DNA of 32,000 nucleotides, taken from Campylobacter cuniculorum DSM 23162 = LMG 24588. GTDB lineage: Bacteria; Campylobacterota; Campylobacteria; Campylobacterales; Campylobacteraceae. Below are positions 19,935 to 21,348 of the stretch, piece after piece. The stretch is from the NCBI RefSeq assembly GCF_002104335.1, contig NZ_CP020867.1, positions 1,059,206 through 1,091,205 on the forward strand, read 5' to 3'. The translations under genes were made by a program, and so were the position numbers. Each line of letters opens with the position of its first letter. Within the stretch, counting starts at the first letter, position 1. The notes beneath the pieces are model-generated. The model did no database searches. It was not told where the DNA came from and saw only the letters and a program-made list of their open reading frames with translations.

Positions 19935-20035
19935 AATTTAAATTTTTATTTTTAATGATGTATTTTTGTTTTGAAATTGCAATATTTATAGGAATAATAC
20001 CTTATGGACTTTTAGAAGGAACTATTTCGAAATGA
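19556..20035 (+). CDS. polytopic membrane protein, immunity-like, variant 2 (intact reference copy)
   Basis: 159 aa with a TTG start. Strongly hydrophobic F/I/L-rich body. The stop overlaps the start of the 438-aa gene (ATGA). Confidence 0.75.
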   Translation: MQIPIYSKLKAKLESKGIDNISSGQIAWFVCSLVLALVCAVFVVLYKLKNLEIRLYVIFLFPILLFYIAIFWFIFLSFYKNFFFVHLFCYFFMYIFNIIFDDFYLNLAIMNILLMIIWLFFIKLHLKFKFLFLMMYFCFEIAIFIGIIPYGLLEGTISK

Positions 20036-21348
20036 TAATAAAATATTATGCAACAATTTATGTAGATGAGTTATTAGAAGATGAAATGTTAAAGCATGTT
20101 GATTTTTCTTTGCTATTTAAAGCAAAATTTTCTCAAATTTCTAAGCAAATCGACCTCACCCACGCTTTTTTAGGACTTACTAAAGGTAAAAGTCCCAATG
20201 AGTTAGATGAACAAGATAAAGAATTAAGACAAGAAAAACTTAAAAATATTGATTGGAAAGATTTTGATAAGAAATGGTATGAAGCTAAAGAAGCTAATGA
20301 ATTTAATGATGGTTTTTGGGGCTTTGGAACTGGAACAGGTGCTGTTAATGATACAGCTGGCAAAGTATTTAACAATAACCAATATGTATTGGATAATAAT
20401 GTTAATAAAAATTGCTATATTATTAAAAAACTAAGAAGTTCACAAACTTTCTACCCTTCTAATCGTTGCACCTTAGAAATCTCACAAGAACAATATGAAA
20501 CCTTACTTACAAATATTAAAGATGATTTTAACACTACAAAAGAAATTACGCCTAATAGTCAAAAACCAATCAATGAAGAATTTACTTATAAACTTCTTGA
20601 AAATAACTGCGTCACTTGGGTTATTCAAAAACTTTCTGATATAGGAATAGAGGTTATCAATATTGATGAATGGATTCCTGATGCTCCTATGGTAGATGAT
20701 TTAAAGGAAAATCTTGATTTAATTAAATCTCTCCACTCTATCTTTTTAAAATTTCAAAATATTGATGATAATTTACAAAGTGTAAAAGGTGCAAAAGCTT
20801 TTAGAGATTGGGCTAGAATGCTTATAAATAATTCTTTAATGCAAGAAATTTATCTTGATGAATATAAAAAACAATACAATAATGAAAATCTTAGTTTGGA
20901 GCAAAAAGAAGTTTTGTATGCTTTATGGAATATTACAAGGGCTTATAAAACCTTAGAAAATCTTTTAGAGCGTTTGATTATAAAATCCAACACTAAAAAT
21001 CTAAAAGGCGATTTTGAATTGATTTATTTCGATAGAAAAGATAGGCAAATTAAACTTTTAAAAGCGAGCAATGATTATGAAGCTATCATTATACAAGATT
21101 TAGATTTGAGTCAAAAATATAATAATTTTAGTGTGAGTAAGTTTTATCCTTTTATTTTTATACCTAAAGATGAAATGATTTCAAGAATGCTTTATCATAA
21201 GTATGATTATGGTAATATTTCACAAGAATACCAAAAAGATAGAAATGAATTTTATTTTAATGTTTTAGCGGGAGAAAAAAGTGATAAATACTGGAGTTCT
21301 AGCTATCATAAAATGACTAAAAATTTAAGAAAAATTCATGTCTCTTGA
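20032..21348 (+). CDS. full-length 438-aa protein; N-terminal half has a permuted papain-fold (PPPDE/DeSI-like) His...Cys signature; candidate toxin/effector
   Basis: Beta-strand-like YYATIYVD, then THAFLGL (His44), then FTYKLLENNCVTWVIQKLSDIGIEVINIDEWIP (Cys193). Compare the PPPDE pattern VYDL...H-S-G-I-E and Y-x-L-x-x-x-NCNHFS...L...IP-x-WI. Existence as a gene is confident; the function is a motif-level inference. Confidence 0.55.
   Translation: MIIKYYATIYVDELLEDEMLKHVDFSLLFKAKFSQISKQIDLTHAFLGLTKGKSPNELDEQDKELRQEKLKNIDWKDFDKKWYEAKEANEFNDGFWGFGTGTGAVNDTAGKVFNNNQYVLDNNVNKNCYIIKKLRSSQTFYPSNRCTLEISQEQYETLLTNIKDDFNTTKEITPNSQKPINEEFTYKLLENNCVTWVIQKLSDIGIEVINIDEWIPDAPMVDDLKENLDLIKSLHSIFLKFQNIDDNLQSVKGAKAFRDWARMLINNSLMQEIYLDEYKKQYNNENLSLEQKEVLYALWNITRAYKTLENLLERLIIKSNTKNLKGDFELIYFDRKDRQIKLLKASNDYEAIIIQDLDLSQKYNNFSVSKFYPFIFIPKDEMISRMLYHKYDYGNISQEYQKDRNEFYFNVLAGEKSDKYWSSSYHKMTKNLRKIHVS

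Follow-up and report, generated by a model that had tools for sequence, protein, structure and literature searches.

We analysed a 32,000-nucleotide stretch of the Campylobacter cuniculorum DSM 23162 = LMG 24588 genome (contig NZ_CP020867.1, positions 1,059,206 to 1,091,205; this whole stretch is called the window below), focusing on a gene for a 438-amino-acid protein. We found that this protein is probably an undescribed type VI secretion system (T6SS) cargo effector of Campylobacter and enterohepatic Helicobacter, with a circularly permuted NlpC/P60 domain and a candidate membrane immunity partner; its toxic activity and its secretion are predicted. This reading draws on the conservation of a His/Cys signature, profile- and fold-level homology of the N-terminal domain, linkage to a gene for a membrane protein, T6SS neighbourhoods in related genomes and the mosaic structure of the family.

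The protein is 100% identical to a C. cuniculorum hypothetical protein, and the 119 homologues returned by database search, every one annotated as hypothetical, come without exception from Campylobacter or enterohepatic Helicobacter. Neither a signal peptide nor a hydrophobic segment was found in it. The elements that carry the argument, all on the + strand, are as follows (ORF, open reading frame; TM, transmembrane).

20032..21348, +: full-length 438-amino-acid effector candidate (intact ORF, 119 homologues, AlphaFold2 model)
20032..20680, +: predicted N-terminal permuted NlpC/P60-like catalytic domain, residues 1-216 (invariant H44/N192/C193, DUF2459 profile match, TseH fold match)
20698..21345, +: C-terminal domain, residues ~223-438, family-specific, proposed constant/delivery module
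19556..20035, +: TM159, a 159-amino-acid polytopic membrane protein with ~4-5 hydrophobic segments, candidate cognate immunity protein

The predicted N-terminal catalytic domain

The original prediction had placed a papain-like signature with His44 and Cys193 in this ORF, and we located the ORF and its motifs as described: YYATIYVD (residues 5-12), THAFLGL (43-49), TLEISQEQY (147-155), YKLLENNCVTW (186-196) and EWIP (213-216). The codons of His44 and Cys193 lie at 20161-20163 and 20608-20610 of the window. We aligned 42 full-length family members (40-80% identity, mean column identity 44%), in which H44, N192, C193 and W196 were invariant in 42/42. Also invariant were F46-L49, K111, N116, R135 and C146, together with the helix start E149-S151-E153-Q154-Y155. 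Given this conservation across 42 homologues, the alignment indicates that the His/Cys pattern is not due to chance. D59, kept in 41 of the 42 sequences, is a candidate third catalytic residue, and an acidic residue at 93 is another. The third polar residue that orients the His in relatives is Glu, Asn or His; dyad families have none, and DUF2459 and C97 are among those without a third residue that work by a Cys-His dyad (PMC10318531).

A second invariant cysteine, Cys146 (codon 20467-20469), was found in an NRC motif on strand 145-150. DUF2459 relatives are without it; its role may be structural, or it may serve as a second reactive thiol.

With AlphaFold2 we modelled the whole protein (pLDDT, predicted local distance difference test, 80.8; pTM, predicted template-modelling score, 0.84) and residues 1-221 (pLDDT 78.7). 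In both models, His44 opens a strand (43/45-51) and Cys193 is the first residue of a helix (193-203), with His44 preceding Cys193 by 149 residues. As modelled, this placement is the papain-like arrangement with the His before the Cys, i.e. circularly permuted.

We scanned the 42 members against Pfam at E<=1, which found 27 families, 25 of them listed. The family stayed below every Pfam threshold, and the sub-threshold but consistent matches were to DUF2459, in 24 of the 42 members (best E 4e-4). LRAT was matched below threshold in 8/42 (best E 0.0074), and Lnb_N/DUF4105 weakly in a single member (E 0.046). Among the matches listed there was none to Peptidase_C97 (PPPDE), to the canonical NLPC_P60, CHAP or Tae families, or to DUF6695, the family of TseH. 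The gathering cut-off of DUF2459 is 27 bits, and the best individually examined members reached ~18 bits, over profile positions ~84-165 of 171. By these profile scores the 438-amino-acid family is a remote homologue of DUF2459, not a member of it.

An exhaustive search of 1.84e9 representative proteins with a hidden Markov model (HMM) of the family gave 81 matches, nearly all of them the same family or fragments of it. One match (P0184, E 4.8e-6) is a bona fide DUF2459 protein (79.5 bits against the cut-off of 27) whose N-terminus is hydrophobic and signal-peptide-like. In hhalign comparisons the family was paired with DUF2459 at 94-96.5% probability (best E 7.7e-10) over residues 137-221, with LEISQEQY...NNCVTW set against FDISETQL...NTCVTW; the DUF2459 profile was shallow, the collection by word-indexed search having supplied 3 proteins. 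Searches of PDB chains gave no match for the family profile and noise only for the DUF2459 mini-profile. A 2944-residue protein with cadherin repeats (P0181, HMM E 7e-7) was set aside, in our judgement, as a probable repeat or compositional artefact, and two other matches appear to be chimeric ORF calls: P0159, and P0134, in which ParB_N is fused to a fragment.

The metagenomic protein P0142 (522 amino acids) has the family's first ~110 residues, His motif included, then switches to a different core with a GNSCVDFV Cys motif and to a different C-terminus. From this composition, the N-terminal segment of the family may be joined to other catalytic cores.

Foldseek with the full-length model found nothing under E 0.3 in the PDB, and for this reason the N-domain was modelled separately. 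With that model the single notable PDB match was TseH (6V98; probability 0.98, E 0.014, 228 columns), and there were no DeSI structures in the output. Against viral structures there was no significant match; at rank 6 (E 0.67) stood a virophage DUF4105 protein, which was only suggestive. When the family was aligned by hhalign with human PLAAT3 (query sequence confirmed against PDB 4FA0), the probability was 1.9% and only the Y-x-L-x-x-x-NC motif was paired, YKLLENNCVTWV with YKLTSENCEHFV.

DUF2459 and DUF4105 have been classed as papain-like (PMC10318531), and a 2026 study grouped YiiX, LRAT, TseH, DUF4105 and Tox-Act1 as permuted NlpC/P60 enzymes (PMC12994826). By profile comparison and modelling, the N-terminal ~215 residues are a domain of the circularly permuted papain-like/NlpC-P60 superfamily, with the sequence match spanning the Cys-bearing half only. 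The superfamily call of the original prediction was thus right, with DUF2459 found by profile, TseH by fold and the expected His/Cys topology in the models, on the combined evidence of Pfam, HMM, hhalign, Foldseek and literature. On the same evidence the PPPDE/DeSI label that it had preferred found no support, and the likeness to LRAT, which it had named more loosely, is by sequence comparison at motif level only. The profile and structure comparison that it had proposed for this domain brought out DUF2459 and TseH, but, among the matches listed, not Peptidase_C97, LRAT above threshold or canonical NLPC_P60.

Membrane partner, C-terminal module and T6SS neighbourhood

TM159 is extremely hydrophobic and almost entirely membrane-embedded, with very short loops. 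Its stop codon overlaps the effector start codon (ATGA, within AAATGA). The same arrangement was seen elsewhere: 23/23 full-length family genes in the fetched loci follow a same-strand hydrophobic ORF of 113-237 amino acids, usually overlapping it. Pairwise identity of the TM ORFs tracked that of the effector N-half (Spearman 0.68-0.73, Mantel p<=0.0005), while rho against the C-half was 0.22 in a 21-pair set and 0.02 in a 14-locus set. From these gene data, TM159 is probably the antidote of the effector, and protection by it is predicted.

The C-terminal domain was mostly modelled with confidence, except for residues 273-276 and 432-438. It gave no Pfam, PDB or Foldseek match, in agreement with the original prediction, which had recognised no feature in the last ~220 residues. 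BLAST for the C-domain in neighbouring lipase-type effectors found no non-family ORF carrying it. Sliding-window comparison of family members put sharp breakpoints either at about residue 190, where the NNCVTW motif lies, or within the linker 211-250, and one near residue 109. Past the breakpoint, paralogues were 95-100% identical, whereas their N-parts were ~45-55% and their TM partners 21-29% identical. Mosaic pairs of this kind were two H. fennelliae copies, and an H. cinaedi and a metagenomic Helicobacter protein.

Downstream of the effector the window holds further genes of the module:

21338..22702, +: gene B, 454 amino acids, conserved downstream partner, start overlapping the effector stop by 11 nucleotides
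22699..26157, +: gene C, 1152 amino acids, module partner with syntenic homologues
26168..27454, +: gene D1, 428 amino acids, paralogue of D2
27737..29479, +: gene D2, 580 amino acids, paralogue of D1

Gene B has 641 homologues that share a conserved ~440-residue N-terminal region. Many of these relatives (588-795 amino acids) add a C-terminal Phage_lysozyme domain (PF00959), of a type known from effectors, and are followed by a gene of ~240 amino acids; the window copy is without the extension. The effector C-half co-varied with the gene B N-terminus (rho 0.50) and the TM gene did not (rho 0.01 with B), with physical linkage alone contributing to such co-variation. A B-like ORF was found after nearly every family member and also after lipase-type effectors in Helicobacter loci, and from the latter we suggest for B a possible role as carrier or adaptor, or as a polymorphic effector itself. 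Taken together, the comparisons suggest two modules, a variable cassette of immunity gene and toxin core and a constant backbone of C-domain and gene B that perhaps serves T6SS loading.

The module of effector, B, C and D genes is conserved in C. lari, on a C. jejuni T6SS plasmid and, as two tandem copies, in C. coli, and H. fennelliae has B-like and C-like genes. Syntenic homologues of gene C were found in C. lari, C. coli, the C. jejuni plasmid and H. fennelliae. Genes C and D gave no Pfam, NCBIfam, PADLOC or PDB-sequence match, B, C and D matched nothing among PDB chains, and an NCBIfam scan of the module returned no matches.

We next consider the neighbourhood of family members in other genomes. 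The C. lari homologue is found four small genes after tssM and has hcp and vgrG beside it; that of H. fennelliae comes immediately after tssL, K, J, A, B, C, E, F and G. On metagenomic Helicobacter contigs, relatives were found within arrays of Tae4 amidase genes or of phospholipase-like/Lipase_3 genes. The family is present on 37 Campylobacter and Helicobacter plasmids, and the plasmid of C. jejuni RM3194 carries it together with tssB, C, E, F and G, vgrG and an AHH toxin. C. cuniculorum itself has been reported to be T6SS-positive (PMC9676060).

A role in anti-phage defence was rated low: PADLOC defence models matched none of the effector, TM159, B, C, D1, D2 and the ORFs 29476-29904 and 30675-31265.

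Stubs, orphan TM genes and the surrounding island

Between 17652 and 19475, upstream of the TM159/effector pair, we found a series of truncated effector genes and TM genes, and copies of a repeated element occur both here and near the end of the window:

17652..17762, +: 36-amino-acid 3' remnant of a TM (immunity-like) gene at the left edge of the island, 95-97% identical to 19912-20035
17759..18049, +: 96-amino-acid effector 5' stub with the His and without the Cys, 83% identical to residues 2-91
18012..18243, +: junction element copy 1 (stub end, intergenic region and 5' end of a TM gene)
18130..18588, +: TM152, 152-amino-acid orphan TM immunity-like gene with hydrophobic segments
18670..18939, +: 89-amino-acid effector stub with the His and without the Cys, 78% identical to residues 38-119
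18932..19272, +: frameshifted orphan TM gene (TM113; 72 + 52 amino acids), matching a C. lari TM gene
19269..19475, +: 68-amino-acid effector stub with the His and without the Cys, 88% identical to a C. lari effector N-terminus
19438..19669, +: junction element copy 2
31228..31459, +: junction element copy 3, after a lipase-like stub
31346..31816, +: 156-amino-acid TM gene, 94% identical to 19556-20035

The order is therefore TM remnant, 96-residue stub, TM152, 89-residue stub, frameshifted TM113, 68-residue stub and then TM159 with the effector. Each TM gene with its following stub resembles a cognate pair that is intact in C. coli or C. lari. In C. coli (locus L021), the TM gene ahead of a full-length 403-amino-acid effector shares 79% identity with TM152. 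The 72- and 52-residue ORFs of TM113 match residues 1-66 and 67-113 of a 113-residue C. lari TM protein (L022, 9663-10004) at 88% and 96%, and the effector matched by the 68-residue stub lies beside it in that locus (L022, 10001-11335). For the 89-residue stub, the DNA repeat copy begins at 18565, upstream of the ATG of the ORF.

In all three stubs the His motif (THAFLGL/PHAFLGL) is retained and the reading frame ends far short of the Cys; the 96- and 68-residue stubs end in ...KEFSEFMIV* and ...KEFSKFMIV*, respectively. As read from these matches, the stubs are 5' remnants of displaced effectors, standing beside orphan immunity-like genes left by cassette replacement. The original prediction had described them as truncated paralogues that keep the His but not the Cys. 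The residues were as it said, but the ORFs are gene remnants and not functional paralogues.

The junction element is ~230 nucleotides long, and its three copies are at least 98% identical (>=98%) and include the conserved first 38 codons of the TM gene (MQIPIYSKLKAKLESKGIDNISSGQIAWFVCSLVLALV). Its repetition suggests that it is likely a recombination substrate for cassette exchange. The TM gene at 31346..31816 probably starts a further effector module just beyond the window.

Two further ORFs, 29476-29904 and 30675-31265, are N-terminal stubs of Lipase_3-like effectors (motif GFSATLFYDKEKD.FI.GFRGTE) and adjoin small multi-TM ORFs (29901-30239 and 30325-30666). The second ends in the shared ...KEFSKFMIV* junction, and from this the same replacement mechanism seems to be active on different toxin types.

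All of these genes lie in an island of low G+C content (22-27%) that extends from ~17.6 kb to the end of the window; the flank has ~30-37%. The left 17.5 kb is housekeeping, with alr, cstA, prsA, ABC transporter components, purM and RidA, as well as a sulfur transporter and a TusA-like ORF. An uncharacterised 611-residue protein in this flank (5860-7695, - strand), unrelated to the effector, has a full-length match to Pfam DUF7897 (E 3.8e-264).

Proposed activity and alternative explanations

The N-domain is plausibly a hydrolase or acyltransferase toxin. Cys193, at the N-terminus of its helix, would act as nucleophile, with His44, on the preceding strand, as general base. The reaction would pass through a thioester acyl-enzyme, as in other NlpC/P60 enzymes, and either water (hydrolase) or an acceptor (acyltransferase) would then resolve this intermediate. 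The substrate would most likely be an acyl ester or amide of rival-cell envelope lipids (phospholipid or lipoprotein). We propose this because of the analogy with Tox-Act1, TseH, Lnb and LRAT/PLAAT and because the candidate immunity protein appears fully membrane-embedded. That such a partner fits action at the membrane better than on peptidoglycan has about even chances of being right, and peptidoglycan would be the less likely substrate.

TM159, translationally coupled upstream, would be the cognate immunity protein. The upstream TM gene and residues ~1-190 would form a variable toxin/immunity cassette, and residues ~220-438 with gene B a constant module for loading or delivery. The stubs and orphan TM genes at 17652-19475 would then be earlier cassettes, displaced by recombination at the junction element. 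We tentatively extend this to a 'reverse-polarity' polymorphic T6SS toxin, a lipid or lipoprotein acyl hydrolase/transferase whose N-terminal toxin is swapped together with the upstream immunity gene while the C-domain and B stay constant; we hold this to be possible, with somewhat less than even confidence. The classical polymorphic layout has a constant N-terminus, a variable C-terminal toxin and a downstream immunity gene, and the layout of the 438-amino-acid family would be its mirror image.

We compared the family with named systems. Likened by its published description, Tox-Act1 of the Salmonella SPI-6 T6SS is the closest characterised analogue: a T6SS-associated toxin with a permuted NlpC/P60 core (H43...C151, compared with H44...C193 here), a membrane-embedded immunity protein and a gene in effector islands. 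It is toxic in the periplasm, its toxicity is abolished by H43A and C151A, it cleaves phosphatidylglycerol (PG) and phosphatidylethanolamine (PE) into lysophospholipids, and it is neutralised by Imm-Act1, a membrane protein with two TM helices (PMC12994826). Unlike Tox-Act1, our family has an extra C-terminal domain of ~220 residues and inserts that lengthen the His-Cys spacing, and it occurs in Campylobacterota only. Imm-Act1 is encoded downstream and has 2 TM helices, whereas the candidate immunity gene here is upstream and encodes ~4-5 TM segments.

TseH (V. cholerae VCA0285, PDB 6V98, DUF6695) is likewise a T6SS effector with a permuted Cys/His core, with Glu81-His64-Cys172 as catalytic residues (PMC11160734), and is the best PDB fold match. 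It differs in being a single domain of ~180-220 residues, against the two-part protein here, and shares 10% identity with it. DUF2459 (PF09601) is the sole family linked by significant sequence statistics and has the (D/E)IS-x-x-Q helix and the N-x-C-V-T-W motif in common with ours, but the proteins seen are ~210 residues long, lack the C-terminal domain and cannot be aligned in their N-terminal halves. Lnb, a Bacteroides lipoprotein N-acyltransferase, consists of five TM helices and a periplasmic DUF4105 domain (Lnb_N, PF13387) resembling TseH; its catalytic Cys is essential, C148S abolishing N-acylation (PMC11160734). It resembles our system in that a permuted NlpC/P60 domain works with TM helices at the membrane, yet it is a single housekeeping polypeptide with a periplasmic domain, whereas the 438-amino-acid protein is a separate soluble protein in effector islands. 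LRAT/PLAAT (H-RAS-like suppressor, PF04970) shares the Y-x-L-x-x-x-N-C motif and the His-before-Cys order, but no counterpart of the second His of the LRAT Cys-His-His triad was identified in our family. PPPDE/DeSI (Peptidase_C97, PF05903), which shares with ours the permuted branch of the papain-like superfamily (PMC10318531), is a eukaryote-centred isopeptidase family, and neither a listed profile match nor a fold match connects the two.

Several other explanations have to be weighed. The protein could be a peptidoglycan-cleaving NlpC/P60 amidase or endopeptidase acting on the rival cell wall, Tae-like or like TseH as first proposed. Membership of the NlpC/P60 superfamily, TseH as best fold match and wall-directed neighbours, namely the Tae4 arrays (L024) and the lysozyme-carrying relatives of B, would all suit this. 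We nevertheless consider it unlikely. The candidate immunity protein lies almost wholly in the membrane, with very short loops, whereas the immunity proteins characterised for wall amidases are generally periplasmic, either soluble or lipoproteins; the listed Pfam matches held no canonical NLPC_P60, CHAP or Tae family. The His-before-Cys order is tied to lipid substrates in YiiX, LRAT, Lnb and Tox-Act1, and TseH itself displayed phospholipase activity in the Tox-Act1 study (PMC12994826). An activity directed mainly at eukaryotic hosts, as a PLAAT/LRAT-like phospholipase on host membranes with the TM protein for self-protection or as export partner, appears to us very unlikely. Host-cell phenotypes have been reported for the Campylobacter T6SS (bioRxiv 10.64898/2026.03.25.714310), and the NC motif with the weak LRAT matches points the same way, but LRAT membership was not supported by profile comparison, and diversifying cognate TM genes, orphan TM arrays and co-variation fit an interbacterial arms race.

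More improbable still is a housekeeping envelope acyltransferase with a membrane partner, that is, a split Lnb (TM helices plus DUF4105) and not a toxin. Lnb joins five TM helices to a related periplasmic domain (PMC11160734), and TM and enzyme genes are translationally coupled here; the enzyme, however, has no signal peptide or TM segment and would be cytoplasmic on its own. The pair is moreover multi-copy, strain-variable, plasmid-borne and mosaic, lies in a low-G+C island and occurs among T6SS genes and other effectors, and the enzyme genes are repeatedly truncated while TM genes persist, which is the signature of orphan immunity. We give very little credence to a catalytically dead scaffold or adaptor that loads gene B or other effectors. 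Such a role would suit the nearly constant presence of gene B downstream and its co-variation with the effector C-half, but the absolute conservation of His44, Asn192 and Cys193 across 40-80% identity argues for retained catalysis, and a non-toxic adaptor would not readily account for an upstream TM gene that diversifies along with it. A PPPDE/DeSI isopeptidase that removes ubiquitin-like modifiers is scarcely credible: the resemblance is one of motifs (a His on a strand, N-C at a helix start and then an aromatic residue), Peptidase_C97 was missing from the listed matches at E<=1 and DeSI from the Foldseek output, and the family is confined to bacteria, in interbacterial effector/immunity arrays.

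A number of observations weigh against our preferred reading of a T6SS effector with a lipid-acting permuted NlpC/P60 domain. The 32-kb window contains no T6SS core genes, only other effector-like genes, and the known T6SS delivery markers PAAR, MIX and Rhs were not found. In most described T6SS pairs the immunity gene is downstream, not upstream, and physical linkage by itself would account for part of the correlation between TM gene and effector N-half. With hhalign in global, low-mact or half-domain modes, no significant alignment of the His-bearing half to DUF2459 was obtained. Profile homology is therefore limited to the Cys half (137-221), and the assignment of His44 draws on its invariance and predicted topology. 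The fold match to TseH is modest (TM-scores, i.e. template-modelling scores, of 0.38 and 0.45, at the E of 0.014 given above), and the full-length model had no fold match. Finally, the lipid substrate is proposed by analogy, and TseH was first proposed to be a peptidoglycan endopeptidase.

The family was absent from the published Campylobacter effector surveys and the Tox-Act1 data set that we examined; the Tox-Act1 paper and its supplements contain no Campylobacter or Helicobacter member of it (PMC12994826). Its architecture differs from that of known relatives in the added C-terminal domain, the upstream polytopic immunity candidate, the N-terminal polymorphism and the arrays of stubs and orphans. 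It is also widespread, a single cluster holding 1,697 C. jejuni sequences, and T6SS-positive Campylobacter are increasingly common in poultry and human isolates. Assignment to the class of permuted NlpC/P60 lipid-acting toxins yields concrete, testable predictions. The mosaic layout offers a natural system for the exchange of toxin/immunity cassettes on a constant delivery scaffold, and the orphan TM genes could mark past inter-strain competition. If the proposal is true, this would be the first lipid- or lipoprotein-directed acyl hydrolase/transferase cargo effector in Campylobacter.

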